Shown here: piece after piece, positions 17,205 through 62,583 of the stretch | Layout of the letters: every line of letters starts with the position of its first letter | How positions within the stretch are numbered: the stretch's first letter is position 1 | Assembly (NCBI RefSeq): GCF_964355755.1 | Contig: NC_092673.1 | Coordinates: 16,861,648-16,925,647, forward strand | Reading direction: 5' to 3' | Source of the DNA: Antedon mediterranea | Lineage: Eukaryota; Animalia; Echinodermata | Length of the DNA stretch: 64,000 nucleotides | The notes under the pieces: model-generated | Database searches by the model: none | What the model saw: the letters and a program-made list of their open reading frames with translations, nothing else | Told to the model about the DNA's origin: nothing | Translations under genes and position numbers: made by a program

Positions 17205-17237
<33 letters not shown>

Positions 17238-34724: not shown

Positions 34725-34835
34725 GATGGTGACACTCTATTACATTCATATCTGGGGAATGAATATACACCTATTACCTTAGAGATAGTGATGTGTCTCA
34801 TTCAGCATGGGGCACCAGTAGCATTGCAAAATAAG
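34725..34835 (+). CDS. ANK exon 1 (37 aa): DGDTLLHSYLGNEYTPITLEIVMCLIQHGAPVALQNK
   Basis: TTTCCAG acceptor, AAG|GTAAAT donor, phase 0-0; G-x-T-[PL]-LH...LEIV..L..HGA ankyrin consensus. Confidence 0.88.
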
Positions 34836-36603
34836 GTAAATGTACAGGGATTTGCTAGTGTAATAAGCTAACATTCTATAGATATGCTGAAGTAAACCAT
34901 TTAATGAGAGAAAAAAGTAAGCACATTAACAAAAATCAAATTTGATGTAAACAAACCAAATAAAAAAATAACTCAATAGTTTATATGATTTATGATAACA
35001 AACAAATTTAAAGTATACAGTTACCTATCACATAACATACATCTTTAATTTTCTTAATGAACAAAAAAATCTACTTTTTTTATATGTTCAGGTGAATCAG
35101 TATAATTTTGTTTACATATTTTTGACCGTAAAACAAATATAAATTGCTCATATGTAGCTGTAAAGATAGCAATGATTGACAATGGTCTAAACAACTAAAA
35201 ATGTTTATGTTAAAAAAATTAATAGAATCTGATTTTAATAAAAAATAATTATTAATTAAAAACCTGCTCCCTCCCTTACCTTACAAAAAATGCTTCTGTC
35301 AGTCTATCCAGCTAATTATAAACATGGCCTTAAACTACATCTGGAGATCCGTTTCCAACCAGGATCTTTTTGTGAAAACATTTTGCCACAAAAGGAAGAG
35401 AAATGTAAATAATGTTTAGCCTTTAGTTTGTGGTTTCCAAAATGCAATTTAAAAAAGAGAGCTAAAATGAAATTATTCTTTTCAAACTGAATGCTTTAAG
35501 AACAGTTCCGTCTCTTATCTTATGACTTTTCGGGGAAAAATGACATTATTAAAGTTGATATATAAAATTTGATACTAGTAAGTGTCAATAGATGGTTCTT
35601 AAATACATGACCTTTGGTAAATAACTGAAAATTGTTTAAGTACAAAGCAAATAAATACAGATATGTTGGAATTTATGTATAGATTATTAATTGTTAATAA
35701 CCTGCTCCCGCCCTTTACTTACTTTACAATAAAATACTTCTGTCAGTCTTATCACATACAGCCAGTATGAATATGGCCTTAAAGAGATCCTTTTCCAAAC
35801 AAACATTTTGCACAAAAGGAAGAGAAATGTAAATAATGTTTAGTTTAGTAAAAATGTTTGAGCAATGCAATTTCAAAAAGAAATTTAATATGAAATTATT
35901 CTTTTCAAACAGTGCCGTATCTTATCTTTTGTCTTTTTGGAAAAAAATTATTCTATTAAAGTTGCCAGTTAAAATTTGATATACTGGTAATTAAGTGCCC
36001 ACAGATGGTTCTTTCGAATACATAAACTTTGGTAAATAACTGAAAATTGTCTAAGTCGCACTGTACACAAAGCAAATAAATACAGATATGATGGAATTTA
36101 TGTATTCAAATATAATTGTCATCCTGAGAATTACCTTAATTTTGTTTATAACATGGTATTGTTCAACAAATTCCTGTCTTGGTACATTTGATGATGGGAT
36201 GGTATCGGGCTTCATGATATGATATGATTTTCATCGAGGCAAATGATTTAAACTAAATTTGTTATCGTTAATATCTAACTTAGCTTAATTTACTGAAATT
36301 TCCCATTACCTAAATTTATATGTAAATTCATTAAACTGCTTATTGGCCTCATATTGTTAACATCTAAACATTTGTTTGTACAATTTTATAAAATACGTAT
36401 TTTATTAATGTTCACATTTTGTGATTGATATTATACAGTAAGTAGATTTTAATGATTACTTACATTAAGTAATAGGCTAACAATCACTAGATCTGCTCCA
36501 TATTATATTTTGTTTTCATTTATCAATAATGATAATTAGGATTTTATCACATTATTTAGCAGTAATTGTTGTTGTTTGTATTAACAAAAAAACAATTTCA
36601 CAA

Positions 36604-37291
36604 GGCCATGTAAAAAAAAAATTGTTGATCATCCTTTTTTTTTTAAAAAAAGTCAGGAGGAAGGGAGGCTTTTTTTTTTTTTTTTTTTTATTATTATCTT
36701 TAATTTTTTATTATTATCGACTCAGCTTAGACTGGGCCGATACTTTGATCATACCATCTCCCTTTCCGGGCTTCCTATCACTGGCGTACACTGTAGGCAA
36801 CGTAGGCTTATCGCCCACGACGGATTCACCGTCGAACTTCCTCGTGTACAATTCAACATACAACTCTGATAATGTTACAACAGCCGTAACTTCGCAGCCA
36901 AACCAATCTTTAATCGGCGAACTACTACCCTCGCGGGTAATAGAAAGTACCACAAAAGACATTTAAGCTGCATAAATACGTATCAATAAAGATCTATTGT
37001 TCGCAAATCACGTGTAAAAAGAACCCACGCTGTACAGCAGGCCAGCGAAAAAAATAAACAAAATCAAGCTAGATACCCGTATCTTGCACATGCGCATATT
37101 GATACTATCAATAGAGGGCCAGATAATCGCGATGAATTTCTGAATTTTGTGATCGCGACGACTGATCTGAGGTTGAAAAACGGGATTTTCATCCGGATTT
37201 TCACGGTTTAAAAAAAAAAAATAAATAAATGAGGCGGGCCGATTTTCGATGTCGGGCGAGGACGATCAACAACCTTTTTTTTTACATGGCC
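36604..37291. mobile_element. Non-autonomous TIR element with GGCC termini (Zator-like; superfamily tentative)
   Basis: GGCCATGTAAAAAAAA ... TTTTTTTTACATGGCC, inserted at the CACATAATG site that is empty in the other units; TAA on the right, imperfect on the left. Confidence 0.7.
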
Positions 37292-37342
37292 TAATGTCTG
37301 TTGTCAGTATTTATAAACTTAATGATTATTATTCCTTTCCAG

Positions 37343-37453
37343 AATGGTGACACTCCATTACATTCATATCTGGGGAGTATATATATTGCACCTACCTTAG
37401 AAATAGTGACATGTCTCATTCAGCATGGGGCACCAGTAGCATTGCAAAATAAG
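37343..37453 (+). CDS. ANK exon 2 (37 aa): NGDTPLHSYLGSIYIAPTLEIVTCLIQHGAPVALQNK
   Basis: AG/GT sites, phase 0-0, TPLH motif. Confidence 0.9.
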
Positions 37454-38214
37454 GTAAATGTACAGGGATTTGCTAGTGTAATAAGCTAACATTCTATAGA
37501 TCTGCTGAAGTAAACCATTTAATGAGAGAAAAAAGTAAGCACATTAACAAAAATGAATTTTGATTAAAACAAACCAAATAAAAAAATAACTAAATAGTTA
37601 TATATGATTTATGATAACTGATTAAAAGTGTACAGTTACCTATCATATAACATAAATCTTTAATTTTCTTAATGAACAAAAAAATCTATTTTTTTTATAT
37701 ATTCAGTTATTAATTAACAATTATTGACAATGGTCTAATTAATTGTAAATATGAAATAAAATGTGACAACTACTAAACAACTAAAAAATGTTTATGATAA
37801 AAAAATTAATAGAATCTGATTTTAATAAAAAATGATTATTAATTAATAATGTGCTCCTTCCCTTATCTTACAAAAAAATGCTTCTGTCAGTCTATCCAGC
37901 TAATTATGAACATGGCCTTAAAGAAATCCTTTTCCAACCTAGGATCTTTTTGTGCAAACATTTTGCCACAAAATGAAGAGAAATGTACACAATGTTTTGT
38001 TAGTTTTCAAAATCTAAATTGTTTGAGTTATGCAATTTAAAAAAGAAAGGTAATATGAAATTATTCTTTTCAAACTGAATGCTTTTAAGAAAAGTTCCGT
38101 CTCTTATCTTATGACTTTTTTGGAAAAATTATTTCTTGTTAAAATATAATATACTAGTAAGTGCTCACAGATGCTTCTCGAATACATAAACTTTTGTAAA
38201 TAACTGAAAATTGC

Positions 38215-39994
38215 CGACACTAAGTACTTGAGTCACAGCCCCACCATGGTTGGGGCTTTGGCGAAGCGATTTTTGGTAATTTACCCCCTAGATGGCTGGA
38301 AATGGTACTCTCGCACATAACATTTATGTTGAATGACACCTCTGGTTTGGCCGGAAATAACACTTATAGCGCGCTAGCAAACAACAAAACGATCGTAGCC
38401 AACTTTTTCCGCCGGTAAACATACGCGAAGAAACATTTTTTGCGTTCATTACGAACGTCAGGGGGAAGCCCCAATGAAAAAAATAGGCCTAATCTATTAG
38501 CCTACTCATCAGTAGGACAACTCTAGTTGGCCGGAAACGAAACTTTATAGCGCACTAGCAAACAGTAAAACCATCGTAGCATACTTTTTCCGCCAGTAAA
38601 CATACGCGATAAAAAAATGTTTTTGCGTTCAATACGAACGTCAAGGGGAATTCCCCGATGAAATAAAACTAGGCCTACTCATGAGTAGAACAACTCTGTA
38701 GTTGGCCGGAAAGACACTTCATAGCGCGCTAGCAAACCGCACGATCGTAGCCTGCTTTTTCCGCCGGTAAACATACGCGATAAGAAACATTTTTTGCGTT
38801 CATTACGAACGTCAAGGGGAATTCCCCGATGAAATAAAAAATGCCTACTCATCAGTAGGACAACTCTGTAGTTGGCCGGAAAGGACACTTCATAGCGCGC
38901 TAGCAAACAGCCCGATTGAGCCTACTTTTGCGCAGGTAAACATACTGTACGCGATATATGAAAAAAAAATATGCCTCATCAGTAGGCAACTGTAGTTAGC
39001 CGGAAACGACACCTCATAGCGCGTTAGCAAACATTAAAAACGATCGTAGCCTACTTTTTTTTTCGCCGGCGGGTAAACATATGCGATAAAAAAACATTTT
39101 TTGCGTTCAAATACAAATATCGGGGGCAAGTCCCGATGAAATAAAACTAGGCTTACTCATTAGTAAGACACCTCAAGTTGCCCGGAAATAAGACTTCATA
39201 GCGCACAAGGAAATAGGAAAACATTCGAAAGAGAGACATGGCAGTAACAAAACACGTGCTTACATCTCTCGGCGGCGGCCGGTGAAAGCACCATGTGACA
39301 TACAGTATCGCAGTACTGATATCACAATACCATGTGACATCCCTTGTCACTCGACTTTCTCACGAAGTAGGGCCTAAAACATTCTAGCACCGATGTACAA
39401 ATGTACCTTAAGTTAAGTGAAATAAGACTTTAGCACACTAGCAAATAGGAAAACGATCGTAGCCTTCTTGAATGTATTATACGATCAAAGCAGCTAGCAT
39501 TGAATTGCGCCTAGAAATCATTTGATGACGTCATCGATATTTATTTTTAATACACATAACATTTTTACAAGAAAAACAATACAATCAATCATTTACTTTA
39601 TTTACAATATACAAGTTACTACACTTTAGACAACAGCCAAATACTAGAGATCGAAAGAGAGACATGGCAGTAACAAAACACGTGTTTACATCTCTCGGCG
39701 GCGGCGGCCGGTGAAAGCGAGTCTCAGTTGTTTAACACTTTGTTACGCAGTCTTTTGTTTTTCGTCTAGTGGTCATGTCACGTGTCTCGTATGCATTAGG
39801 CTCTTTATGCATGCCGCGCCTCAGCTCTAGAAAAGTACCGTACCTGCCTGTTAATCTATTTTTAGATTGTTGTGGTTGATATTTTTAAGCGTCACGGATA
39901 AGGTTTTAAGCGTCACGGCCGACCGTAAAGCGTCACGGTAGAGAACCCAAGCGTCACGGTACCGTGATGCTTCAAAGGCCTGGGGAGAACACTG
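38215..39994. mobile_element. Truncated hAT-like non-autonomous element with ~180-bp internal tandem repeats
   Basis: Right end CTGGGGAGAACACTG (reverse complement CAGTGTTCTCCCCAG) and clustered GCGTCACGG subterminal motifs. The other end and adjacent intron DNA are deleted. Confidence 0.65.
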
Positions 39995-40453
39995 CTGGTT
40001 TTCATTAGGTGTTAAAAATTAGTACCGAAAGTATGTACCAACTTTCTCTACCATTGGGTAAAAATTATAGAAGTTGCACTTAATTTACTGAAATTTCCCA
40101 TTACGTAAATTTGTAAATTCATTAAACTGCTTATTGGCCTCATATTTTTAATATCTGAACATTTGTTTGTACAATTTTATGAAATATGTATTTTATAACG
40201 TTCAAATTTTGTGATTGATATTGTACAGTAATTAGATTTTGATGATTACTTACATTAAGTAATAGACTAACAATCACTGAATCTGATCCATGGTAATATA
40301 TTATATTTTGTTTTCATTTATCAATAATGATAATTAGGATTTTATCACATTATTTAGCAGTAATTGTTGTTGTTTGTATTAACAAAAAAACCCAATTTCA
40401 CATAATGTCTGTTGTCAGTATTTATAAACTTCATGATTATGATTCCTTTCCAG

Positions 40454-40564
40454 TATGGTAACACTCTATTACATTCATATCTGAGGAATGTATATACTGC
40501 ACCTACCTTAGAAATAGTGACGTGTCTCAAGCAGCATGGGGCACCAGTAGCATTGCAAAATAAG
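40454..40564 (+). CDS. ANK exon 3 (37 aa): YGNTLLHSYLRNVYTAPTLEIVTCLKQHGAPVALQNK
   Basis: AG/GT sites, phase 0-0. Confidence 0.88.
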
Positions 40565-42025
40565 GTAAATGTACAGGGATTTGCTAGTGTAATAGGCTAA
40601 CATTATATAGATCTGCTGAAGTAAACCATTTAATGAGAGAAAAAAGTAAGCACATTAACAAAAATCAAATTTGATTAAAACAAACCAAATAAAAAAATAA
40701 CTAAATAGTTATATATGATTTATGATCTGATTTAAAGTGTACAGTTACCTATCATATAACATAAATCTTTAATTTTCTTAATGAACAAAAAAATCTATTT
40801 TTAAAATATATTCAGTTATTAATTAACAATTATTGACAATGGTCTAATTAATTGTAAATATGAAATAAAATGCGACAACTACTAAACAACTAAAAATGTT
40901 TATTAAAAAAAATAATAGAATCTGATTTTAATAAAAAATAATTATAAATTAAAAACCTGCTCCCTCCCTTACCTTACAAAAAATGCTTCTGTCAGTCTAT
41001 CCAGCTAATTATGAACATGGCCTTAAAGAAATCCTTTTCCAACCTAGGATCTTTTTGTGCAAACATTTTGCCACAAAATGAAGAGAAATGTAAACAATGT
41101 TTTGTTAGTTTTCAAAATCTAAATTGTTTGAGTAATGCAATTTTAAAAAGAAAGTTAATATGAAATTATTCTTTTCAAACTGAATGCTTTTAAGAAAAGT
41201 TCCGTCTTTTATCTTATGACTTTTTTGAAAAAATGAATTCTCCTTAAAATATAATAAACTAGTAAGTGCTCACAGATGCTTCTCGAATACAAGAACTTTG
41301 GTAAATAACTGAAAATTGTCTAAGTCACAGTGTACACAAAGCAAATGAATACAGATATGTTGGAATTTATGTAGTCAAATATAATTGTCATCCTGAGAAT
41401 TACCTTAATTTTGTTTATTGCATGGTATTGTTCACCAAATTCCTGTCTTGGTATATTTGATGATGGGATGGTATTAGGCTTCATGATATGATATGATTTT
41501 CATTGAGGCAATATGGTTTAAACTAAATTTGTTATCGTTAATATCTAAATTAGCTTAATTATGACATTGGTTTCATTGGGTGTTAAAAATCAGTACCGAA
41601 AGTATGTACCAACTTTCTCTACCATTGTGTAAAAATTCTAGAAGTTGCACTTAATTTACTGAAATTTCCCATTACCTAATTTTAAATTTATATGTAAATT
41701 CATTTAACTGCTTATTGGCCTCATATTGTTAACATCTAAACATTTGTTTGTACAATTTTATGAAATATGTATTTTATTAATGTTCAAATTTTGTGATTGA
41801 TATTGTACAGTAAGTAGATTTTAATGATTACTTACATTAAGTAATAGGCTAACAAAATCACTAGATCTGATCCATGGTAATATATTTCATTTATCAATAA
41901 TGATAATTAGGATTTTATCACATTATTTAGCAGTAATTGTTGTTGTTTGTATTAACAAACAAAAAACAATTTAACATAATGTCTGTTGTCAGTATTTATA
42001 TTGCTTCATTATGATTCCTTTCCAG

Positions 42026-42133
42026 TTTGGTGACACTCCATTACATTCATATCTGGGGAGTAGATATACACCTACCTTAGAAATACTGACGTTTCTCATT
42101 CAGCATGGGGCACCAGTAGCATTGCAAAATAAG
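42026..42133 (+). CDS. ANK exon 4 (36 aa): FGDTPLHSYLGSRYTPTLEILTFLIQHGAPVALQNK
   Basis: AG/GT sites, phase 0-0; not in the ORF track. Confidence 0.88.
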
Positions 42134-42864
42134 GTAAATGTACAGGAATTTGCTAGTGTAATAGGATAACATTATATAGATCTGTTGAAGTAAACCATTT
42201 AATGAGAGAAAAAAGTAAGCACATTAACAAAAATCAAATTTGATTAAAACAAACCAAATAAAAAAATAACTAAATAGTTATATATGATTTATGATCTGAT
42301 TTAAAGTGTACAGTTACCTATCATATAACATAAATCTTTAATTTTCTTAATGAACAAATAATCTTTTTTTTTTATATATTCAGTTATTAATTAACAATTA
42401 TTGACAATGGTCTAAATTAATTGTAAATATGAAATAAAATGCGACACCTACTAAACAACTAAAAATGTTTATGTTAAAAAAATTAATAGAATCTGATTTT
42501 AATAAAAAATAATTATTAATTAATAACCTACTCCCTCCCTTACCTTACAAAAAATGCTTCTGTCAGTCTATCCAGCTAATTATAAACATGGCCTTAAACT
42601 ACATCTGGAGATCCTTTTCCAACCTAGGATATTTTTGTGCAAACATTTTGCCACAAAAGGAAGAGAAATGTAAATAATATTTAGCCTTTTAGTTAGTGGT
42701 TTCCAAAATTTAAAATGTTTGAGCAATGCAATTTAAAAAAGAAAGCTAATATGAAATTATTCTTTTCAAACTGAATGCTTTAAGAACAGTTCCGTCTCTT
42801 ATCTATGACTTTTCTGGGAAAAATGACATTATTAAAGTTGCTATATAAAATTTGATACTAGTAA

Positions 42865-43905
42865 GACCCCATTTACACTTCATCGACGATTTCTTAGCCG
42901 GCCCGAAGTCGGCCCGACGCCGGCTTTCTTTTTAGCCCGCAATGTGTTTACACTTACCCAAAAAGCCGGCCTCGGGCCCTTACTATTGTGTTTACACTTG
43001 CTCTCGCGGAAGAGTGCTCGATGATACGATTTCGCTACATTCACGTCATATCCGCTCATGTGCGTCTTAAAAAGTTAATATTATAAGCGTTGTCGATCTA
43101 CACTAGGCCTAGGCCTATCAACTTTATCAAAAAAGAATCAAATAACGGTATTTAATATGGATCAAAACAATTGTATTATTGCTTTACTACTAATGTTTGC
43201 GTCTCGTTTTCTAAAGAATAGTAGTAGATCATACGCCTTTTTCACGAAACGGAAGACATCTTCGATCGATGACGACACAAACAATGCCGTTCAACGAAGC
43301 GTAACCAACAGAAATAACATAGCGTTTTCAGCCTATTTTCGGAGGACAAGTTACTTAAAAATTCGTAAACGCCTCAACGGACAGTCGTATGGACAAAATT
43401 TTTACTGTAAAATGTTCTTTAAAGATTAGCCTATAGAACTGTGTGATTAAAAAAAATTATAATTTTTTTTTCACTTCTTAAGTCCATCGAAAAAAACTCC
43501 ACAGTTTATAAGCATAGGCGATGGTGTCCTGAAATCCCCTGAAAACGCTATGTTATTTATGTTGGTTACGCTTCGTTGCACGGCATTGTTTGTCATAGAT
43601 CGTGAAAAAGGCGTATACATCTTCACCAATTTAATTTCAATGAAGAATTTCCGATTCATCAGCAATAAGTTTCGTAAACTTAAAGCTATAGTTGACCCAG
43701 AACGTTCATTTTATGACCGCGAGTGTTTGCACTATACGAAGTGCCGGCCCGAAGCCCGCAATTGCCGGCCCGAAGCCTACTCTAGACTAGGCTCAAAATT
43801 GAGCCGGCTCGAGGCCGGCTCGGTTGTTCCCAGAGTGTTTACACTTGTGCACTTTTGGCTCGAGCCGGCCTCGGGCTCGCTAAAAGCTGAAGTGTAAATG
43901 GGGTC
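42865..43905. mobile_element. PIF/Harbinger-type MITE, TAA TSD
   Basis: TAA|GACCCCATTTACACTTCA ... TGAAGTGTAAATGGGGTC|TAA; empty site at ~48585; internal inverted repeat ~43280/43540. Confidence 0.88.
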
Positions 43906-44688
43906 TAAGTGTCAATAGATGGTTCTTAAATACATGACCTTTGGTAAATAACTGAAAATTGCACTGTACACAAGGCAAATAAATACAGATATGATGGAAT
44001 TTATGTAGTCAAATATAATTGTCATCCTGAGAATTACCTTAATTTTGTTTATTGCATGGCATTGTTCACCAAATTCCTGTCTTGGTACAATTGATGATGG
44101 GATGGTATAAGGCTTCATGATATGATATGATCTTCATCGAGTCATGATATGATATGATCTTCATCGAGGCAAATGGTTTAAACTAAATTTGTTATCGTTA
44201 ATATCTAACTTAAATTAATTATGATATTGGTTTCATTGGGTTTTAAAAATCAGTACCGAAAGTATGTACCAACTTTCTCTACCATTGAGTATAAATTCTA
44301 GAAGTTGCACTTAATTTACTGAAATTTCTCATTACCTAAATTTATATGTAAATTCATTAAACTGCTTATTGGCCTCATATTGTTAACATCTAAACATTTG
44401 TTTGTACAATTTTATGAAATATGTATTTTATTAATGTTCAAATTTTGTGATTGATATTGTACAGTAAGTAGATTTTAATGATTACTTACATTAAGTAATA
44501 GCCTAACAATCACTAGATCTGATCCATGGTAATATATTATATTTTGTTTTCATTTATCAATAATGATATAATTAGGATTTTATCACATTATTTAGCAGTA
44601 ATTGTTGTTGTTTGCATTAACAAAAAATACCAATTTCACATAATGTCTGTTGTCAGTATTTATAAACTTCATTATGATTCCTTTCCAG

Positions 44689-44796
44689 GATGGTTACACT
44701 CCATTAAATTCATATCTGGGGAGTGTATATACACCTACCTTGGAAATAGTGACGTGTCTCATTCAGCATGGGGCACCAGTATCATTGCAAAATGAG
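44689..44796 (+). CDS. ANK exon 5 (36 aa): DGYTPLNSYLGSVYTPTLEIVTCLIQHGAPVSLQNE
   Basis: AG/GT sites, phase 0-0. Confidence 0.88.
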
Positions 44797-45484
44797 GTAA
44801 ATGTACAGGGATTTGCTAGTGTAATAAGCTAACATTATATAGATCTGCTGAAGTAAACCATTCAATGAGAGAAGCACATTAACAAAAATCAAATTTGATT
44901 AAAACAAACCAAATAAAAAAATAACTAAATAGTTATATATGATTTATGATAACTGATTTAAAGTGTACAGTTACCTATCATATAACATAAATCTTTAATT
45001 TTCTTAATGAACTAAAAAATCTATTTTTTTTATATATTTATTAATTAACAATTATTGACAATGGTCTAATTAATTGTAAATATGAAATAAAATGTGACAA
45101 CTACTAAACAACTAAAAAATGTTTATGTTAAAAAAATTAATAGAATCTGATTTTAATAAAAAATGATTATTAATTAATAATGTGCTCCTTCCCTTATCTT
45201 ACAAAAAAATGCTTCTGTCAGTCTATCCAGCTAATTATGAACATGGCCTTAAAGAAATCCTTTTCCAACCTAGGATCTTTTTGTGCAAACATTTTGCCAC
45301 AAAATGAAGAGAAATGTACACAATTTTTTGTTAGTTTTCAAAATCTAAATTGTTTGAGTTATGCAATTTAAAAAAGAAAGGTAATATGAAATTATTCTTT
45401 TCAAACTGAATGCTTTTAAGAAAAGTTCCGTCTCTTATCTTATGACTTTTTTGGAAAAATTATTTCTTGTTAAAATATAATATA

Positions 45485-45888
45485 CTAGTAAGTGCTCACA
45501 GATGCTTCTCGAATACATAAACTTTGGTAAATAACTGAAAATTGCACTGTACACAAGGCAAATAAATACAGATATGATGGAATTTATGTAGTCAAATATA
45601 ATTGTCATCCTGAGAATTACCTCAATTTTGTTTATTGCATGGTATTGTTCACCAAATTCCTGTCTTGGTACATTTGATGATGGGATGGTATAAGGCTTCA
45701 TGATATGATATGATCTTCATCGAGGCAAATGATAAATTTGTTTTGATCGTCAATATAGTACACTGGTTTTCATTAGGTGTTAAAAATTAATAGCGAAAGT
45801 ATGTACCAACTTTCTCTACCATTGGGTAAAAATTATAGAAGTTGCACTTAATTTACTGAAATTTCCCATTACGTAAATTTATATATAA
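45485..45888 (-). mobile_element. Helitron relic in the ANK intron unit (representative copy; one per unit)
   Basis: Reverse complement aligns with both ends of the Helitron at 53445-54719; CTAG terminus retained. Confidence 0.7.
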
Positions 45889-46222
45889 ATTCATTAAACT
45901 GCTTATTGGCCTCATATTTTTAATATCTGAACATTTGTTTGTACAATTTTATGAAATATGTATTTTATAACGTTCAAATTTTGTGATTGATATTGTACAG
46001 TAATTAGATTTTAATGATTACTTACATTAAGTAATAGGCTAACAATCACTAGGTCTGATCCATGGTAATATATTATATTTTGTTTTCATTTATCAATAAT
46101 GATAATTAGGATTTTATCACATTATTTAGCAGTAATTGTTGTTTGTATTAACAAAAAAACCCAATTTCACATAACGTCTGTTGTCAGTATTTATAAACTT
46201 CATGATTATGATTCCTTTCCAG

Positions 46223-46333
46223 TCTGGTAACACTCTATTACATTCATATCTGAGGAATGTATATACTGCACCTACCTTAGGAATAGTGATGTGTCTCATT
46301 CAGCATGGGGCACCAGTAGCATTGCAAAATAAG
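46223..46333 (+). CDS. ANK exon 6 (37 aa): SGNTLLHSYLRNVYTAPTLGIVMCLIQHGAPVALQNK
   Basis: AG/GT sites, phase 0-0. Confidence 0.88.
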
Positions 46334-49441: not shown

Positions 49442-50445
49442 GTAAATGTACAGGGATTTGCTAGTGTAATAAGCTAACATTATATAGATATGCTGTGGTA
49501 AACCATTCAATGAGAGAAGCACATTAACAAAAATCAAATTTGATTAAAACAAACCAAATAAAAAAATAACTAAATAGTTATATATGATTTATGATAACTG
49601 ATTTAAAGTGTACAGTTACCTATCATATAACATAAATCTTTAATTTTCTTAATGAACAATAAAATCTTTTTTTTTTTATATATTCAGTTATTAATTAACA
49701 ATTATTGACAATGGTCTAATTAATTGTAAATATGAAATAAAATGGGACAACTACTAAACAACTAAAAAATGTTTATGATAAAAAAAATTAAAAGAATCTG
49801 ATTTTAATAAAAAATGATTATTAATTAATAATGTGCTCCTTCCCTTATCTTACAAAAAAAATGCTTCTGTCAGTCTATCTAGCTAATTATGAACATGGCC
49901 TTAAACTACATCTGGAGATCCTTTTCCAACCTATGATCTTTTTGTGCAAACATTTTGCCACAAAATGAAGAGAAATGTACACAATGTTTTGTTAGTTTTC
50001 AAAATCTAAATTGTTTGAGTAATGCAATTTAAAAAGAAAGGTAATATGAAATTATTCTTTTCAAACTGAATGCTTTTAAGAAAAGTTCCGTCTCTTATCT
50101 TATGACTTTTTTGAAAAAATGATTTCTTGTTAAAATATAATATACTAGTAAGTGCTCACAGATGCTTTTTGAATACATGAACTTTGGTAAATAACTGAAA
50201 ATTGCACTGTACATGCCTTAAGGCATATAAATACAGATATGATGGAATTTATGTAGTCAAATATAATTGTCATCCTGAGAATTACCTTAATTTTGTTTAT
50301 TGCATGGTATTGTTCACCAAATTCCTGTCTTGGTACAATTGATGATGGGATGGTACTGTATCAGGCTTCATGATATGATATGATCTTAATCGAGGCAAAT
50401 GATAAATTTGTTTTGATCGTCAATATAGTACACTGGTTTTCATTA

Positions 50446-52060
50446 CCGTATATTTCGGTATATAAGTCGCACTTTTGACACGCAAATTTGACCTCTAAAT
50501 TAAGGGTGCGTCTTATACACCGAACATAAATGCCTCACCACACAGTGTACATATCGTCACCTCGTTGGCTAGGCTAGGCCTAGCTACAGTGTACTAACGT
50601 AACGGCAACCTGCTTCTGCCTAGTTTTCAAGGCATTTTAGCGTGATGTTATACTAAATATGATGAAAAGATTTGTTTATTATGGAGCTGTTTTAGGCGCT
50701 CCGAGAAAATTTCATTTGTAAACGTTTACGATTGGAATAGATAGTATTTATTTATAGTTATACGCACGATCGCCGACCGCCGTACCCCCAGCGCAAGCCC
50801 TTCTTGGCGGCCACATGTTGTACGGTATTCGACTAGTATATTCTCCAGGTGATTATAGCATGGACCTAGCGTACACACTTCTCGGATACATAGATACTAA
50901 TCGAATACGATTGTCCGTGAAAACGTGCGCCCTCTTGAAATGATCGAGCGAGGCTAGCCCACACACGTGCGTGTTACACACACGGTCATGCACTCGATGT
51001 TGCGGGTGCGAAACTCATGAATAACAAGTTAGAAACAACTTGTTGAGGCTGGCCGCGGCCGAGCCTAGGTAAGAAAAAACCTAAATAAAGGACGCCGTTG
51101 TAGATATAACAAAATATATTATTACAATAAGATTGATTCCGGGATTGATTACAATATAAAAAAAACATTGTTTTGATGAAATATAAGGTGCGTCTTATAC
51201 ATCGACGATACAAAAAACACCGTGGTTAGGATTCCGGCACCGGAACCCAACTGCCCAGCGTTAGGGAATCCGACACGCTATTGCGCATGCCCAGAGCGAG
51301 GTAATCGGCGACTCTATACTATACCAATTCTTTGACTATACAGCGATGGATCATTTCATAGCTACGCCACACGGCGAACTAGCCTAGATGCCTACTAATG
51401 CGGGATCCACTAATCTAGGCTAGGGCTACCAGTTAGACGTGACCAGTGGGCCTATTTATTTTGTAATTAAAAAATGGTTGCTTCATTCATATATAAACTT
51501 TTCATATCATTATGAATTATATAATTACATGACTAGTTTTATGATTTTTCATAACGCATTTAATATACTGTACATAACATGCAATCACAAGTTGATTTGT
51601 TGACGGCAGCCACCGCGTGGATGTGAAAAAACTGTTCGGGAATTCGGGGTCGCAACGTTAAAAACAGCATTACGATTCTTAGATAGATACTGATTCTTAT
51701 TAATATCATTATAATTATTTTAACGCGTGGCGTAGTCGTATTTTAATTATTAATTCATGTATGGCATAGGCCAAGTTTCATCCATCTCTCGCTCGCGCAA
51801 CGACTCGACTATCTAGGCTACAGTAAATCCCTATAACACTCCGACTCTCGGTGGTGTGGTGTGTGGCACTATTAGTGCAAGCTATAATTCACTTCCCAGA
51901 GCTCTGGGCATGCGCAATATCGTGTCGGATTCCCTAACGGTGGGCAGTTGAGTTCCGGTGCCGGAATCCTAACCACGGCGTACAAAAAATACCGATATTT
52001 TACTCTCAGTTAGGGGGTGCGTCTTATACACAGGTGCGACTTATACACCGAAATATACGG
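50446..52060. mobile_element. Tc1/mariner(pogo)-type MITE, TA TSD, carrying a nested element
   Basis: TA|CCGTATATTTCGGT ... ACCGAAATATACGG|TA; second copy at 56998-57846. Confidence 0.88.
51218..51980. mobile_element. Mutator-like MITE, 9-bp TSD TACAAAAAA
   Basis: ~80-bp TIRs (CCGTGGTTAGGATTCCGGCACCGGAAC...); TSD at 51209-51217 and 51981-51989; absent from the 56998-57846 copy. Confidence 0.85.
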
Positions 52061-52515
52061 TAGGTGTTAAAAATTAGTACCGAAAGTATGTACCAACTTT
52101 CTCTTCCATTGAGTAAAAATTCTAGAAGTTGCACTTAATTTACTGAAATTTCCCATTACCTAAATTTATATGTAAATTCATTTAACTGCTTATTGGCCTC
52201 ATACATTATGTTAACATCTAAACATTTGTTTGTACAATTTTATGAAATATGTATTTTATTAATGTCAAAATTTTGTGATTTGATATTGTACAGTAAGTAG
52301 ATTTTAATGATTACTTACATTAAGTAATAGGCTAACAATCACTAGATCTGATCCATGGTAATATATTATATTTTGTTTTCATTTATCGATAATGATATTT
52401 AGGATTTTATCACATTATTTAGCAGTAATTGTTGTTGTTTGTATTAACAAAAAATACCAATTTCACATAATGTCTGTTGTCAGTATTTATAAACTTCATT
52501 ATGATTCCTTTCCAG

Positions 52516-52620
52516 TCTGGTGACACTCTATTACATTCATATCTGGGGCGTGGAGACCCTACCTTAGAAATAGTGACGTGTCTCATTCAGCATGGGGTAC
52601 CAGTAGCATTGCAAAATAAG
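52516..52620 (+). CDS. ANK exon 9 (35 aa): SGDTLLHSYLGRGDPTLEIVTCLIQHGVPVALQNK
   Basis: AG/GT sites, phase 0-0; not in the ORF track. Confidence 0.88.
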
Positions 52621-53444
52621 GTAAATGTACAGGGATTTGCTAGTGTAATAGGCTAACATTATATAGATCTGCTGAAGTAAACCATTTAATGAGAGAAAAA
52701 AGTAAACACATTAACAAAAATCAAATTTGATTAAAACAAACCAAATAAAAATAATAACTAAATAGTTATATATGATTTATGATAACTGATTTAAAGTGTA
52801 CAGTTATCATATAACATAAATCTTTAATTTTCTTAATGAACAAAAAAATCTATTTTTAAAATATATTCAGTTATTAATTAACAATTATTGACAATGGTCT
52901 AATTAATTGTAAATATGAAATAAATGCGATAACTACTAAACAACTAAAAATGTTTATTAAAAAAATTAATACAATCTGATTTTAATAAAAAATAATTATT
53001 AATTAAAAACCTGCTCCCTCCCTTACCTTACAAAAAATGCTTCTGTCAGACTATCCAGCTAATTATGAAAATGGCCTTAAAGAAATCCTTTTCCAACCTA
53101 GGATCTTTTTGTGCAAACATTTTGCCACAAAATGAAAAGAAATGTAAACAATGTTTTGTTAGTTTTCAAAATCTAAATTGTTTGAGTAATGCAATTTAAA
53201 AAAGAAAGGTAATATGAAATTATTCTTTTCAAACTGAATGCTTTTAAGAAAAGTTCCGTCTCTTATCTTATGACTTTTTTGGAAAAATGATTTCTCGTTA
53301 AAATATAATATACTAGTAAGTGCTCACAGATGCTTTTTGAATACATGAACTTTGGTAAATAACTGAAAATTGCACTGTACACAAGGCAAATAAATACAGA
53401 TATGATGGAATTTATGTAGTCAAATATAATTGTCATCTTGAGAA

Positions 53445-54719
53445 TCTATATATAAATTTACGTAAGGGCAAAATTCGGTAAATCGCGCCTTACTTCTAGA
53501 ATTTTTACTCGATGGTATATAAAGTTGGTTCGTACTTTCGGTACTGATTTTAACCACCTGATGTAACCCTGTTTACTAATTAAATTAAGTTAGATAATTA
53601 GTTATTGACGATTTAAACGAATTTAGGTTCAACGATTTGCCCCAAATAGGGGTGTTTTCCGATCGGGGTATACACTGTCTAATGGATGTCCATCTTGATA
53701 AATACCCGCCACAAAAATGCGAGGAGGCTTCGCATTTTCCTATCTCCTCCTACGATAATTGTTTTTAATAGCTGAAAACTGGTTGAACAGCTAGAGTACA
53801 GCATCATAATGTTGAAGACAGGCCGATTTTCTTTAAAAAATACTATTTTGATAGATTTAATATACGATTATACAAATGTATTGATTTGCGATGAATGGAA
53901 CATCCCAATCTCTCAGTCTGCCAGAGTTTGGTTTAACACAAGTAGGTAGATTTATGAGCCCTTGGTTTAACACATACGGTAGGTAAATATATGGGCCCTT
54001 TGAGAATAAACTTGAGCAATACTGTAAATACCTATTAACTATTTTTTTTTTTTTTTTTCTTACTGTGAATGTTCGTACTGTTGGATGTAATATAAAAATA
54101 TATACAAATAAACGTTATTACTGAGATTGTGGATAGGCTCTACTGTTAGATATATAAACACATTATTATATACACATAAACTTTATACTGACAGTTCTTT
54201 CTCAACGTTTGTATTAATTAATAATTACCAACAATATAAACGTCGTAGTGGTGTATCGTGACATGTACTTTAATATTTCAATCGATTATGACAGTGACAG
54301 TTTTAACAAAGTATTAAATCGCAAATGTTTTACTGTATTTAGAGGTATATTATTTATAGGCGTATAAAACATGAAAAAAATATTTCGTTACTGAGTGGAT
54401 AAAGAATATATTTAAAAATTGTTCCTCTTTGCACCTATCCGCTTTCCCATCCCTCAACCCTAATGTTACATAAAAAACACAAATTGGGTTTCTTTAAATG
54501 AGTCCAAATCAAAAATTTGGACTCATTTTGTGATAAGTTTCTCCTTCGGAAGTAATTCCCAGGGTGCTAATTTTAGTTGACTACATAAATCATTGTGTCT
54601 ATTTATACGTTTCTGTATACGACAATTATAGTATTATAGTCCTGCGGAACGTACTTTGAAATCGCCAGTTTTGTTACGCTGAAGTTTCTGTGTATTCGAG
54701 AACCATCTGTACCATCTAG
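53445..54719 (+). mobile_element. Non-autonomous Helitron
   Basis: 5' TC and 3' CTAG, inserted between A and T of GAGAA|TTACC with no TSD; the site is empty in other units. Confidence 0.85.
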
Positions 54720-55325
54720 TTACCTTAATTTTGTTTATTATATGGTATTGTTCACCAGTTCCTGTCTTGGTACATTTGATGATGGGATGGTATGGCTTCA
54801 TGATATGATATGATCTTCATCGAGGCAAATGATAAATTTGTTTTGATCGTCAATATAGTACACTGGTTTTCATTAGGTGTTAAAAATTAGTACCGAAAGT
54901 ATGTACCAACTTTCTCTACCATTGGGTAAAAATTATAGAAGTTGCACTTAATTTACTGAAATTTAATTCCCATTACGTAAATTTATATATAAATTCATTA
55001 AACTGCTTATTGGCCTCATATTTTTAATATCTGAACATTTGTTTGTACAATTTTATGCAATATGTATTTTATAACGTTCAAATTTTGTGATTGATATTGT
55101 ACAGTAATTAGATTTTGATGATTACTTACATTAAGTAATAGGCTAACAATCACTAGATCTGATCCATGGTAATATATTATATTTTGTTTTCATTTATCAA
55201 TAATGATAATTAGGATTTTATCACTTTATTTAGCAGTAATTGTTGTTGTTTGTATTAACATAAAAAACAATTTCACATAATGTCTGTTGTCAGTATTTAT
55301 AAACTTCATTATGATTCCTTTCCAG

Positions 55326-55361
55326 AATGGTGACACTCTATTACATTTATATGTGAGGAGT
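55326..55361 (+). pseudogene. Truncated ANK exon 10 (NGDTLLHLYVRS)
   Basis: Intact acceptor, then a deletion junction into intron sequence; a further remnant with only the donor end lies at ~55786-55820. Confidence 0.7.
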
Positions 55362-56997
55362 TTTCATTGGGTGTTAAAAATCAGTACCGAAAGTATTTAC
55401 CAACTTTCTCTACCATTGAGTAAAAAATTCTAGAAGTTGCACTTAATTTACTGAAATTTCCCATTGCCTAAAATTCATTAAACTGTTTATTGGCCTCATA
55501 TTTTTATTTGCTGAACATTTGTTTGTACAATTTTATGAAATATGTATTTTATTAATGTTCAAATTTTGTGATTGATATTGTACAGTAAGTAGATTTTAAT
55601 GATTACTTACATTAAGTAAATAACAATCACTAGATCTGCTCAATGCTAAGATATTCTATTTTGTTCTCATTTATCAATAGTCGACAATTATGATTATTGA
55701 CCACATTATTTAGCAGTAATTTTTGCTATGGTTTGGGTTGACAAAGAAAACCCAAATTCACATAATGTTTGTTGTCAGTATTATACACCAGCAACATTGC
55801 AAATAAGGTAATGTACAGGGATTATACAGGGATATTTCATTTGTTTCTGGATAGTATCCAAATATTATTTGCTTTGAAAGTTTATATTAAAACTATTTGT
55901 TGTTTTATATTATGGCTCAAACATTTTAACACATCTACCTACTGTTCCAAAGTAAACTTTTATTCAATTTATCTCTCTCTCTCTCTTCCATCTTTCAATG
56001 TTGAAGGAGGTAGGCTTAAACAGTAACACTCAAGTTTTTGTTTGGATACAGGAGTTATAATTGGCGCACTGTACAAGTTGATGTCATTTATTGGCAAATA
56101 GTAATTTCTATTCACGTCCTAATTTATGTTAAAAAATAGTAAATCTATGTGTTATCACGTGATGCTCTTTCATCCAATCTCTAGATGGTAAATGTTTGAG
56201 CCATGACATAATACTGTATGTATGTGATGCGTAATTAAAGTGTGTTATATTGTATATCAATAATTTCTCAAAACTACTAATAACTAAACCCATTTTTTTA
56301 ATAGGATGGAAATACACCTGTCTCAGTTTTAGAAAATAACGGGTGGATAAGGGACCAGGGTAAAACTGAAATTTTAAACTTCTTTAAAAGTAAGTGAAAT
56401 TTTAATTATTAAAATTTTGGAATCAACTAGTTTTCATTACAAACGATAAAGATTTGATTTCTTGTCCCAAATGAAGAAGAATGCCCATATCAAAACTAGA
56501 AAATTAGCATTTATGATATCATTCACATGTTCAGATGGCAATAGATTAAATAATCCACTGGGATTGTAGTATACATGGAAGTTGTGATATGTTGCAAGAT
56601 GTAAAAACCTTATTTTTTATGATTTGAAAATTGCAAATAAATTAGAAAAATTATTTTGCCATTACGATAAAAATACACAAAAATGCAAACTTTAAAATTC
56701 CTTTGAATTAACAATATTGAATAAATTAGGCCACACTTTTTTTTTTATGGAACGTCATTTTTCACATCAAATCAATCTCTTTATTCATCAATACATCAAA
56801 ACAATTATACATAAACAAAATAAAGATGTGAAGATGAAAGGGACCTCCAAGAAACCCAAAGGGACTTGTGATACAAGGCCCACTATAAGCTAGTTACAAA
56901 AAAGACATACAAAAAATAAATTAATAAAATTAATAAAAAATCCAGTATAGACAAATACACGGGATGCGCATTGTTAAGGAATATTTGAACTTTATTA

Positions 56998-58619: not shown

Positions 58620-59640
58620 TTTTATAGTCTAAGGAACTTTCTTAGCCAATACATACAAGATTAAACCATTAGGTAAGAGTTCAAAATCTATTTCAAAGAC
58701 CCATCCCTATAATTTTCGACTTTTTGTAAAAATAATGCAATATTACTTTAAAAACATTAAACCAGGTTATTCCTTGTCTTAGATGTACGTTTTATGGTAA
58801 ATTATGATAAAATGAAAGAAACAATGCACTACCTAAGTAGCTCGCAGTTTATTTATTATTATAAAGTTGATTAAAATCATTAATAAACTTATATTAGTTT
58901 TCAACTTTCTGATCGTACCAGACGTAGCCATAGCCAGTGGAACAAAGCAAATCATTAACTTGTTTAGCCCAACAATGTTCATTTCTATTAGTTTTTCTTA
59001 GTTGAAACATGTAACGTTTAAAAGGAAATCTATTTTGATCCATTTCAATGATTTGTAACCAATAATGAATAATAGAAATAAAGCAATCAATGTTTAAGGA
59101 TAGTCTGCCTAATTCTGATTTGACAGCCACGCTGGATGCGCTGTTTCCAATGCCTAAAATAAATCTTGAAAAACGTGTCCGTAAATGATCAATTGGTGAT
59201 AAATTCGAAAATCCCCATGTCTCCCGTAAATTAAAATTGGTAAAACTTTGTCAAAAATGTGTTTCCATATATTCTCTGGTAGGTATTTTGTTTTGCTATT
59301 AATTGATTGTAAATAGTTACCATACGTTGTTTGCTTTTTGACAATTGTGTTCAATTGTGTTATTCCACTGACCATTTGAATTGAAAACCACTTCCAAGTA
59401 AGTATACGATTTAACAACTTCCATTTTAATGTTTATGTAATACCATTTTTCATATTTCCTTAATTTTTCACCTTTTTTAAATACCATTATTTTTTATTTG
59501 TTTACATTTACACTAAGACCCCATATGTCACAAAATATTTCCAATATAATTATTAAATTTTGTAAGCCTTTACTGTGTCTGCAAATAGTAATAAATCAGC
59601 AGCATATAGCAGATGGTTTATAAAGCAATCCGGCTCGAGT
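58620..59640 (-). pseudogene. Decayed non-LTR retrotransposon RT/C-terminal fragment
   Basis: LYAADLLLFADTVK (degenerate YADD), IFDKVLPILIYG and AVKSELGR...IIHYW motifs, with frameshifts. Boundaries approximate. Confidence 0.75.
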
Positions 59641-60215: not shown

Positions 60216-60308
60216 ATTTACCAAGTACTGTTGATGAGCAATTTCAAACACAATTTCAGAAACAGACAAGTGACGAACAGAAAACAAAACTTCTTAAGCC
60301 AGAGAGTG
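60216..60308 (+). CDS. Linker exon (phase 1-1): (D)LPSTVDEQFQTQFQKQTSDEQKTKLLKPES
   Basis: TTTTTTTAG acceptor, G|GTAAGT donor, open frame, phase-compatible with the next exon. Confidence 0.7.
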
Positions 60309-61385: not shown

Positions 61386-61548
61386 TTATAAATAATTAAA
61401 GATTCTGAGAAAATCAATCAATCAATATATCTTTTAAAAATCAATTATCTTTATTTAAATCAATGCATATAACCTAATTCTAGTTTTTTTTTACTTTATT
61501 TACTCCAGATGTTTAAAAAATCTATTAAAATCTTGATTCAATTTTCAG

Positions 61549-61696
61549 ATATTGCTGCACGTGAATTAGATTTTCAGAAAGCATACAATGAAGCCTTGAA
61601 AGATGGATCCGTTCCAGTCAATCTTGGAATGCTTAAAGTGATTGGGCAAGAAGGAGTGGGTAAAACATGCCTCATCAATGCATGTCTTGGAAAAGA
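61549..61696 (+). CDS. Roc-type GTPase exon with P-loop GQEGVGKT
   Basis: TTTTCAG acceptor, GA|GTAAGT donor. AYNEALKDGSVPV...LKVIGQEGVGKTCLINACLG is a typical pre-Roc helix plus G1. Confidence 0.88.
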
Positions 61697-62099
61697 GTAA
61701 GTAGTAGTAGTAGGACAGTGAAATGAACATTACAAAATATTTGTGAGTCAACTAAGAATTACAAACCAGCCAACTTTATTGATTTGTTTTTGATAAACTA
61801 CCACTTTTTAAATATTGCAGTGATAGATAACAATAGTTGAATAAAAACGTCTATAAATATATAAATCGGTTTCTACATTAATCATAACACCATCAAATTT
61901 TCTATTGATTATAGAATTTACTTTTAGGCTTGTATTTAAAAAAAAGATCATACGAATGGTCGGATAACTTGACTTCCTAAATGTATAATTAATGAATATA
62001 TTAAAATGGTTTTGAAGTAAAAGGAGAAAAGTGCATGTTTTACAATACCTGTACTTAAAATGACTGAAGTTCATAATTGGTTTCAAATATTTTTGCCAG

Positions 62100-62185
62100 A
62101 TTTGAGGAAAAGCATGTAGTTACAGATGGCATAGCGGTAATAAGAACAGCAAGCACAACATGGACAGAGGCTAAAGCTGATAGTG
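62100..62185 (+). CDS. Roc exon with switch-I-like motif: (E)FEEKHVVTDGIAVIRTASTTWTEAKADS
   Basis: Phase 2 to phase 1, in frame with the previous exon; TDGI at the expected G2 spacing. Confidence 0.82.
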
Positions 62186-62518
62186 GTAAACATGAATACA
62201 TTTAGCATATTACTCTTCCCACCATCATACGTTATGTAACAATATTATCAATAATAATTATTATCATAGACACAGACAAGTTCACAATGAAATGGAGACA
62301 TAGAATTGAATTCAATGCATACAACTGTAGTATGTGTCACATACATTACAATTGTTACTCTATGATCCCTTTATAACGCGCAAGTTACTGTATGTTACAT
62401 TTTATGATGATGTACTGTAATTGTAATTTTACATTGACAGTGGTAAAATATCCAAAGTATAGTCACATATGAACGTATCTACTGAAATAATATGTACACA
62501 CTTTCTCTTTCTCTACAG

Positions 62519-62583
62519 GTAATACAATACAACAGTATACAAAAATGGTCACTGACAAATTGAGAAAAAAGAAAACTGTAAAC
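62519..62583 (+). CDS. Following exon: (G)NTIQQYTKMVTDKLRKKKTVN
   Basis: Strong polypyrimidine tract and CAG acceptor, GTATGT donor, phase 1 to 0, open frame. Confidence 0.72.

Follow-up and report, generated by a model that had tools for sequence, protein, structure and literature searches.

A block-duplicated array of one-repeat ankyrin exons in frame with Roc GTPase exons in Antedon mediterranea: a candidate immune-sensor gene

A stretch of 64,000 nucleotides of the genome of the feather star (crinoid) Antedon mediterranea, analysed here and called the window, carries nine ankyrin exons that were copied in blocks and vary most on the predicted binding face, and that lie in frame with exons of a Roc GTPase and with likely cell-death domains further on; from this combination we infer that the gene is likely a fast-evolving immune sensor, a candidate identified from its sequence. 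The reading to which we incline, with somewhat more belief than doubt, is an NLR-like cytosolic ANK-Roc-COR-DED sensor, in which blocks of ankyrin exons were duplicated in tandem and whose family diversifies in the germline. The features concerned are as follows.

33667..55810, plus strand: tandem array of exon-plus-intron units (by blastn with unit 5 as query)
34725..34835, plus strand: ankyrin exon 1, class A, 111 nt, phase 0-0
37343..37453, plus strand: ankyrin exon 2, class B, 111 nt
40454..40564, plus strand: ankyrin exon 3, class C, 111 nt
42026..42133, plus strand: ankyrin exon 4, class A, 108 nt
44689..44796, plus strand: ankyrin exon 5, class B, 108 nt, with several private changes
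45485..45890, minus strand: decayed Helitron-like relic in the intron of unit 5, both ends recognisable
46223..46333, plus strand: ankyrin exon 6, class C, 111 nt
47786..47893, plus strand: ankyrin exon 7, class A, 108 nt
49334..49441, plus strand: ankyrin exon 8, class B, 108 nt
52516..52620, plus strand: ankyrin exon 9, class C, 105 nt
53445..54719, plus strand: younger insertion of the relic's family, 1,275 nt, TC...CTAG, between A and T
55326..55359, plus strand: broken tenth ankyrin exon, keeping its acceptor and ~11 leading codons before a deletion that runs into the intron
55786..55812, plus strand: remnant of an eleventh ankyrin exon, 3' end with donor, acceptor absent
56305..56389, plus strand: C-terminal capping ankyrin exon, phase 0-1 (61% to the P0007 cap, 54% to the P0042 cap)
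59090..59180, plus strand: first exon of the public models P0004 and P0005 (100% tblastn match)
60216..60308, plus strand: linker exon, phase 1-1
61549..61696, plus strand: Roc exon with the G1/P-loop GQEGVGKT, phase 1-2
62100..62185, plus strand: Roc exon with the switch-I-like TDGI, phase 2-1
62519..62583, plus strand: next Roc exon, phase 1-0, the gene running past the window end

As the first-pass annotation had stated, the nine intact exons each encode one ankyrin repeat in symmetric phase, 0-0 in all nine. Four are of 111 nt, four of 108 nt and one of 105 nt, with no stop codon and with AG/GTAAAT splice signals throughout. Pfam Ank spans the whole exon in 9 of 9 (E 3e-5 to 0.034), three attaining the gathering score. 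Any subset of the nine keeps the frame in silico, which upholds the proposed in-frame modularity. The near-identical splice flanks described earlier are present in every exon, but the similarity is not limited to the flanks, the whole unit of ~1.5 kb having been duplicated. In the broken tenth exon, a donor-like GTGAGG at 55353 would delimit a candidate in-frame mini-exon of 27 nt. The capping exon, the linker exon and the two broken units, absent from the earlier description, extend this anatomy.

Splicing of fourteen exons in silico (nine ankyrin, cap, linker and three Roc) yields 486 aa with no stop, of which the last 130 are identical to P0004 and to P0005, Antedon mediterranea models either of which may represent the window locus. 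The ankyrin exons are missing from both of these public models of the window Roc, and the 59090 exon with which they begin is probably the gene-finder's substitute for the overlooked ankyrin exons. The exons with the Roc G1 and G2-like motifs lie on the ankyrin strand, as had been reported. In the 33.7 kb upstream, tblastn and a profile of the N-cap gave no match better than E 0.1, and no credible start or N-cap exon was found; the paralogues have such an exon.

COR and DED fall beyond the window; the evidence for them is by proxy, through the two models identical over 130 aa. In both, Pfam Roc is followed by COR-A (E 2.5e-12 in P0004 and 2.7e-12 in P0005), in agreement with the Roc and COR predicted beforehand. 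Residues ~80–745 of the AlphaFold model of P0004 match the Roc-COR of LRRK1, LRRK2 and C. tepidum (Z 17–18.6), and residues 801–973 match the caspase-8/cFLIP tandem DED (Z 15.7, rmsd 3.3, 164 aligned); Pfam DED scores below gathering in P0004, and the tail of P0005 is 36–40% identical to the DED regions of P0006. No kinase domain was found in either model. Both have the G3 motif DxxG as WDHGGQ. The canonical G4 motif carries a guanine-reading Asp, which is missing from the GTHKG of this Roc; GTHKG or GTHKA occurs in 11 of 11 Antedon proteins of the window Roc lineage that were checked, GTHRD in two Anneissia relatives, and ATHMD in P0042 and in the first Roc of P0008. A G4 without Asp is compatible with ROCO membership and does not bar it. 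On the strength of these models, the window gene likely goes on to encode Roc-COR and, by prediction, a tandem DED resembling that of caspase-8. The first-pass annotation had mentioned neither this predicted DED output, nor the lack of a 5' end, nor the nearly neutral change of the framework described below.

The array consists of units of ~1.53–1.57 kb (exon plus ~1.5 kb intron), nine intact and two broken, mostly 87–96% identical to unit 5 by blastn in the window and diverging from one another by 1–13%; the first unit is cut at unit position ~484, abutting a transposon-like array (33667). The intron tree groups (e1, e4, e7) with support 100/100, (e2, e5, e8) with 100/98 and (e3, e6, e9) with 89/87, and 499 of 2211 informative-site pairs are incompatible, a recombination signal. 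This shows that a three-unit block was triplicated, ABC-ABC-ABC, with recombination, by ordered tandem duplication rather than free shuffling. The exon duplication proposed earlier is thereby supported as the tandem copying of exon-plus-intron units, whereas "shuffling" was too strong a word, the order being regular and six-frame profile and blast searches of the 64-kb window having found no inverted or scattered ankyrin exons and no copies on the non-coding strand.

The repeats show high internal conservation with few hypervariable sites, and the concentration of their variation at the likely binding surface lends support to the modular surface envisaged earlier. Nine of the 20 nonsynonymous changes fall in codons 1, 3, 8, 11 and 12 (5 of 32 codons; P = 0.0018, with the groove set fixed after the alignment had been viewed), against 2.6 expected at the intron rate (P = 0.0016, sites partly post hoc). 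These are mutation counts that rest on 23 changes in total; pairwise pN/pS values of 2.5 (4.6 in codons 1–17), inflated by non-independent pairs, were dropped in their favor. Codons 1–12 hold 11 nonsynonymous and no synonymous changes, and the loop between helix 1 and helix 2 occurs among the nine exons in seven distinct forms of three lengths, all in frame (P 0.02–0.08 only for the in-frame indels). The overall ratio of 20 nonsynonymous to 3 synonymous changes is not a significant excess (P = 0.17). Purifying selection was undetected on the framework codons (11 changes versus 13.6 expected, P = 0.30), framework and synonymous change both being near the intron rate, and chance suffices for the absence of stops (P = 0.30) and the invariant splice dinucleotides (P = 0.41). 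Exon divergence exceeds intron divergence in 8 of 36 pairs, four of which involve exon 5, and does not do so in the sister pairs e4/e7 and e5/e8. The arrays of P0042 and P0047, independently homogenised, vary at the same positions as the window array, and these positions align with those differing among DARPin repeats; framework identity is 0.85 (window), 0.81 (P0042) and 0.78 (P0047) within arrays, versus 0.42–0.63 between them.

The earlier proposal of an animal ankyrin-ROCO gene is further supported by paralogues, whose ankyrin-Roc joins are those of automated gene models. About 24–25 related Antedon models, many fragmentary, all lie on a single 36.2 Mb contig. P0007 joins the ankyrin repeat type to Roc (80% in the repeats, the same cap, 88% in the G1 exon), P0042 is modelled as eight repeats-Roc-COR-DED and P0047 as six repeats-Roc, and P0008 also joins window-type repeats to Roc; the P0013 model folds as an ankyrin stack (pLDDT 91.8) with DARPins as top matches. 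P0042, P0047 and the first Roc of P0008 share the repeat type (45–58%) with a distant Roc (31–36% over the G1 exon), and P0011 and P0034 have the window Roc lineage (74–77%) but ordinary ankyrin repeats, so that the window gene looks like a chimera, in sequence, of repeat type and Roc lineage. Ankyrin and DED modules appear to have been swapped among family members, and the distant paralogue P0012 has a kinase domain. Among the best 150 matches in 1.84 billion proteins, only Antedon P0042, P0047 and P0014 stand out by identity, and four others of those 150, domain-scanned, are plain ankyrin proteins; an exact 24-nt exon/donor stretch had no match in metagenome contigs, and Rfam gave no match. 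The relatives P0007, P0013, P0014, P0008, P0042, P0047 and Anneissia P0034 and P0032, which have the repeat type, the cap and/or the Roc-COR-DED layout in common with the window gene, are annotated solely as uncharacterized proteins, and the literature searched (mostly open papers) yielded no account of an ankyrin-ROCO family in crinoids or other echinoderms.

Two alternatives concern the introns, which carry five or six insertions. Helitrons are recognised by a 5' TC, a 3' CTAG, insertion between A and T, and a 3' hairpin; the 53445 insertion has such ends and target, and the 3' hairpin is weak (−1.9 kcal/mol). It would be quite improbable, in our estimation, that the array grew by rolling-circle read-through of the relic, copying exon plus intron, instead of by unequal crossing-over: each unit does contain a minus-strand counterpart of the unit 5 relic with recognisable ends, and a younger copy of its family sits within the array, but the relic is internal to the unit, the ~25% divergence between relic and young copy is older than that between units, the 3' hairpin is weak, and mosaic sites and period-3 block copies are consistent with crossing-over. 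The insertion also bears on the strong form of the modular idea, in which alternative splicing skips or combines cassettes to give many receptors per gene, as reported for Ectocarpus LRR-ROCOs. In silico, the inverted insertion can pair with the relic that precedes eight of the exons (about −118 to −128 kcal/mol, versus about −30 kcal/mol for a shuffled control), a geometry that could loop out exons; the frame-keeping subsets, the uniform splice signals and the ROCO splice variants of brown algae (PMC11378527) point the same way. Against this, the symmetric phase is an automatic outcome of duplicating one phase-0 exon, the paralogue models take in their repeats consecutively, and the pairing partner is locus-specific, the insertion being missing from other copies and a joint bypassing it occurring in 4 of 4 sequencing runs; we hold splice combinatorics to be quite improbable. 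These runs, four of five, compared over 52300–56600 (4.3 kb; fragmented contigs, two samples), each cover 30 of 30 bins, introns included, so that the one supposed to be RNA looks like DNA. No exon-to-exon joint is among the 15 joints listed for this region, where 218 more occur, and the eleventh-exon remnant is overlain by high-depth contigs in all four.

The window copy may itself be decaying. That it is a 5'-truncated or silenced birth-and-death member, with units amplified passively and drifting while function resides in other paralogues, is in our view a rather unlikely prospect that nevertheless deserves weight: the start exon was not found, the array is cut mid-unit beside 13 kb of repeats, inverted duplications at 6–18 kb and a gypsy element, the framework changes near the intron rate, two units are broken, insertions have accumulated and the public models skip the ankyrin exons. 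However, the nine ankyrin exons, cap, linker and three Roc exons are all intact and in frame, the changes are clustered rather than uniform (P ~ 0.002) with every loop indel in frame, and the start exon may lie past a transposon-swollen intron. Characterised ROCO proteins act in trafficking, chemotaxis, morphogenesis and death, according to PMC11378527, and the gene could accordingly be a developmental or trafficking scaffold, LRRK/DAPK-like, expanded through a recombination-prone region and not through host-pathogen conflict; the lack of a kinase domain in P0004 and P0005, and a lineage-specific expansion with many fragments, swapped modules and a hypervariable face, atypical of conserved housekeeping genes, make this very improbable.

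In the predicted working of the NLR-like sensor, splicing would unite all repeats, as it does in the models of the paralogues, in a single solenoid, whose variable face is predicted to bind a ligand; binding would shift the Roc-COR nucleotide or dimer state and cluster the DEDs, and the clustered output would set off cell death of the caspase-8 type. Whole repeats would be added, dropped or mixed without frameshift through unequal crossing-over and gene conversion, the units being 90% alike, selection would favor changes at hairpin and helix-1/loop positions, and diversity would come not from splicing but from germline change in paralogues and alleles. More tentatively, and as a conjecture we rate below an even chance, marine invertebrates, among them a deuterostome, may possess a GTPase-based counterpart of NLRs, in which "natural DARPin" arrays of one-exon cassettes, diversified at the binding face by unequal crossing-over and conversion (perhaps splicing) and swapped between Roc-COR lineages, act through interchangeable tandem DEDs on which caspase-8 filaments nucleate.

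The immune receptors of echinoderms are usually tallied as TLRs, NLRs and scavenger receptors. An expanded ANK-Roc-COR-DED family, if true, would add a class of intracellular sensor, one that automated annotation hides because mini-exons are dropped and models are fragmentary. It would also provide a kinase-less direct link from a Roc-COR switch to caspase-8-type assembly, and natural ankyrin binders varied at the positions that engineers randomise; the family is a testable system for the role of kinase-less ROCO proteins.

The gene is worth comparing with other repeat-bearing receptors. The LRR-ROCOs of the brown algae Ectocarpus and Saccharina (PMC3341825, PMC11378527) likewise place before Roc-COR a domain of repeats, each encoded by a single symmetric-phase exon, and have clustered paralogues with broken copies and variable sites on the concave face, whereas the window gene is ankyrin instead of LRR, animal, and predicted to end in a tandem DED, and its exons follow an ordered ABC ×3 block duplication without opposite-strand or scattered copies. 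Fungal NLRs (HNWD/HET-E, NACHT-ANK) combine high internal conservation and few hypervariable positions, in repeats ~85% alike within a gene, with concerted evolution, repeat gain and loss, an NTPase switch and a cell-death effector (PMC13449251), and the conserved repeats with hypervariable sites and the NTPase of the algal proteins follow a like pattern (PMC3341825, PMC11378527). In contrast to fungal NLRs, the switch in the window gene is a Roc GTPase and not NACHT/NB-ARC, the order is reversed (sensor N-terminal, effector C-terminal), and each repeat has its own exon and a 1.5 kb intron. The product would work like an NLR but is not one, having a Roc GTPase and no STAND ATPase. LRRK and DAPK contain ankyrin repeats, and differ in having the kinase that models of the window locus lack. 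The Roc-COR fold is common to LRRK1/2, DAPK1 and the ROCOs of Trichoplax, Aplysia and anemone, and fusions with death-fold or TIR domains are published for invertebrates: Trichoplax ROCOs with CARD or death domains (PMC4104024) and Roc-COR-TIR proteins of Aplysia and anemone (PMC9334734, PMC5094078). A homogenised, hypervariable ankyrin cassette array with a tandem DED is not described in those portions of the animal ROCO literature that were compared; if true, an expanded family of this kind would extend the pattern of brown-algal ROCOs and fungal HIC-NLRs to animals by convergence.

The gene in the window is a ROCO by its Roc and COR domains, COR being recognized by proxy. The nine intact ankyrin exons (e1–e9) reported by the first-pass annotation are present where it placed them, with lengths in order of 111, 111, 111, 108, 108, 111, 108, 108, and 105 nt, and each has an AG acceptor, a GTAAAT donor, phase 0-0, and no stop; its assignment of one repeat per exon is confirmed by Pfam Ank, which spans all nine end to end (3/9 exceeding the gathering score). 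The exons analyzed are as follows.

Exons of the ankyrin array and the Roc end
34725–52620, plus strand, ankyrin exons e1–e9
56305–56389, plus strand, capping-repeat exon downstream of the array
60216–60308, plus strand, linker exon downstream of the array
61549–61696, plus strand, Roc exon 1, downstream of the array
62100–62185, plus strand, Roc exon 2, downstream of the array
62519–62583, plus strand, Roc exon 3, downstream of the array

In-silico splicing of these 14 exons gives 486 residues without a stop. Five NCBI protein models of this crinoid (Antedon mediterranea) match the Roc G1 exon at 100% identity, and the final 130 residues of the product equal residues 32–161 of two of the five, P0004 and equally P0005, which start in the 59090–59180 stretch and skip the ankyrin exons. 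Roc and COR-A are present in both, and the profile check suggested earlier for Roc and COR thus found the two domains, COR by proxy in these models. The AlphaFold structure predicted for P0004 from a 24-row alignment (mean pLDDT 60.7) matches LRRK1, LRRK2, and C. tepidum Roco over residues ~80–745 (Z up to 18.6) and the caspase-8/cFLIP tandem DEDs over residues 801–973 (Z 15.7, rmsd 3.3, 164 aligned). On the basis of the exon frame and the domain content of P0004/P0005, in which no kinase domain was found, we infer the predicted layout ankyrin(n)-cap-Roc-COR-tandem DED. P0005 is identical to P0004 in the first 161 residues and 98% identical in the Roc-COR core; their DED-like tails differ (31% alike), that of P0005 being nearer to P0006, reflecting either an effector swap or a very recent duplicate. 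Automated paralogue models appear to support the ankyrin-to-Roc join: in P0007, two repeats 80% like e7 precede the same cap and linker and a Roc; P0042 runs from an N-cap through eight repeats and a cap to Roc, COR, and DED; and P0047 has six repeats and Roc. At least 25 related models (one an isoform, many fragmentary) lie on a single 36.2 Mb contig and others on at least four further contigs, with relatives also in Anneissia japonica. Another model, P0008, combines ankyrin repeats with two Roc-COR units of distant lineages, and is either a genuine tandem ROCO or the product of gene-model fusion. Tandem repeats of 17 and 160 nt occupy 62615–62756 and 63553–64000, in the intron past the last Roc exon.

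The duplicated unit (~1.53–1.57 kb) consists of an ankyrin exon and its entire intron; units are mostly 87–96% identical to the e5 unit, some spacings are lengthened by transposon-like insertions, and two broken copies lie beyond e9. A tree of the 800 nt 3' of each ankyrin exon has three clades, (e1,e4,e7), (e2,e5,e8), and (e3,e6,e9), and therefore the array is a three-unit block in three ordered copies. Among eight units (unit 2 omitted, its upstream flank being replaced by an insertion), 499/2211 informative-site pairs do not pass the four-gamete test, a sign of recombination or conversion between units. Such growth fits unequal crossing-over with concerted evolution, as treated in parts of PMC5100051 and PMC13449251. 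The proposed shuffling as in Ectocarpus did not hold, the block copies being ordered and none inverted or dispersed; neither on the minus strand nor outside the array were ankyrin exons found in the 64-kb window. The intron of every unit carries an old relic, which we take from its hallmarks to be Helitron-like; it is older than the duplications and more likely travelled with the units than drove the growth of the array. Further insertions in the introns occur at 36603–37291, ~42865–43905, 50446–52060 and ~56990–57845, and 38215–39994, of which three are MITE-like, with terminal inverted repeats, and one holds a tandem repeat of 171 nt; the MITE-like element at 50446 has a shorter copy 3' of the cap exon.

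Minimum-change counts on 32 gap-free codons (loop codons 13–17 excluded) gave 20 nonsynonymous and 3 synonymous changes among e1–e9 (P=0.17 overall), with 11 versus 0 in codons 1–12 (P=0.043). Codons 1, 3, 8, 11, and 12, a set picked with the alignment already seen, hold 9/20 nonsynonymous changes (P=0.0018 for this clustering), and at the intron rate 2.6 would be expected. They lie around the TPLH motif and the helix 1 end, and in alignments the same positions differ among DARPin repeats, the exact numbering of the randomised positions being our assumption. DARPin binding relies on randomised concave-face positions, according to the relevant part of PMC8229355. The loop past helix 1 takes seven forms of three lengths in e1–e9, and sits between helices in the P0013 model, an ankyrin stack (pLDDT 91.8). 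Repeat identity is 0.78–0.85 inside and 0.42–0.63 across the arrays of the window, P0042, and P0047; the repeats of the latter two were homogenised separately, and their variable positions are those of the window array. Set against its flanking intron, the exon is the more diverged in just 8/36 exon pairs, strongly in e2/e5 (7/96 versus 6/649) and e3/e6 (5/96 versus 12/962), with no excess in e4/e7 and e5/e8.

The window repeats are 45–58% like those of P0042/P0008/P0047, in which the adjoining Roc is distant from the window Roc (31–36% over the G1 exon; long branch); P0011 and Anneissia P0034 have a Roc 74–77% like that of the window, and ordinary ankyrin repeats. Most simply, one would infer a transfer of the cassette-type ankyrin domain, and likewise of the DED tails, between Roc lineages, a pattern that gene-model fusions could partly mimic. 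The G4 motif is GTHKG/GTHKA, without Asp, in P0003–P0006, the second Roc of P0008, P0012, P0018–P0020, P0022, and P0028, whereas Anneissia relatives keep Asp (GTHRD); the nucleotide specificity of the Antedon clade may therefore differ.

Paralogues open with an N-cap exon; none was found in the 33.7 kb upstream of the array, which begins at unit position ~484. Directly adjoining it, hairpin-ended repeats form an array of 13 kb, and upstream of these come inverted duplications and a gypsy element. Either the first exon lies farther upstream, across a swollen intron, or it is lost. The hairpin-ended repeats are related 1–2 kb elements in an irregular tandem array (~20300–33666, plus one copy at ~7800–9150) that abuts and truncates the ankyrin array; they end in short GTTATCC...GCGGATAAC hairpins (13 found) and, by their hallmarks, are presumably rolling-circle-like. 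The nested inverted duplications (~6300–18000, 98–100% alike; e.g., 11777–13409 versus 15312–16945, and 10743–11227 versus 7284–7768 and 17530–17991) contain many TAGGCCTA, resemble a gene 5' end, and are a recent rearrangement or an assembly feature. The apparently intact coding region of a gypsy-type LTR retrotransposon (238–5087, plus strand) has 310-aa gag-like and 1315-aa pol-like frames, with protease, RT, RNase H, and integrase motifs recognized by eye.

We moderately favor a germline-diversified, NLR-like sensor whose domains run in reversed order. In this reading, a microbial or altered-self ligand would be bound by the ankyrin solenoid, Roc-COR would serve as a switch for nucleotide-dependent dimerisation (a model discussed in part of PMC4104024), and clustered tandem DEDs, judged from their fold, would seed caspase-8/FADD filaments; new specificities would arise as one-exon repeats are gained, lost, and converted in the germline, together with point changes at the binding face. 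That the window copy is truncated and decaying is a tentative, rather unlikely alternative, itself compatible with a functional family. Framework codons changed at about the intron rate (11 changes versus 13.6 expected), and thus no purifying selection was detected on this copy, in which the absence of stops and the intact splice sites are expected by chance. Receptor diversity through splice combinations of the exons seems improbable, and a non-immune scaffold is more doubtful still.

Four sequencing runs from two samples gave DNA-like coverage over 52300–56600, and the insertion at 53445–54719 is missing from other copies in both samples. The insertion is young and lies in the orientation opposite to that of the relic in each unit, and its predicted RNA duplexes with eight upstream relic sites reach about −118 to −128 kcal/mol; the docking/selector-like geometry is probably incidental.

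Invertebrate Roc-COR fusions to death or TIR domains have been published (portions of PMC4104024, PMC9334734, and PMC5094078). The literature searched (main texts outside subscription) yielded no description of ankyrin-ROCO cassette genes forming a family in crinoids, nor is such a family mentioned in the portions covered of PMC6321704 and PMC8195603. The window gene would work like the fungal HIC-NLRs without itself being one, and like the brown-algal LRR-ROCOs, as far as the pertinent part of PMC11378527 describes them, without being a member of that group. In Ectocarpus, the shuffled exons are dispersed and partly inverted, according to the corresponding part of PMC3341825, whereas the window array is ordered and confined to the plus strand.
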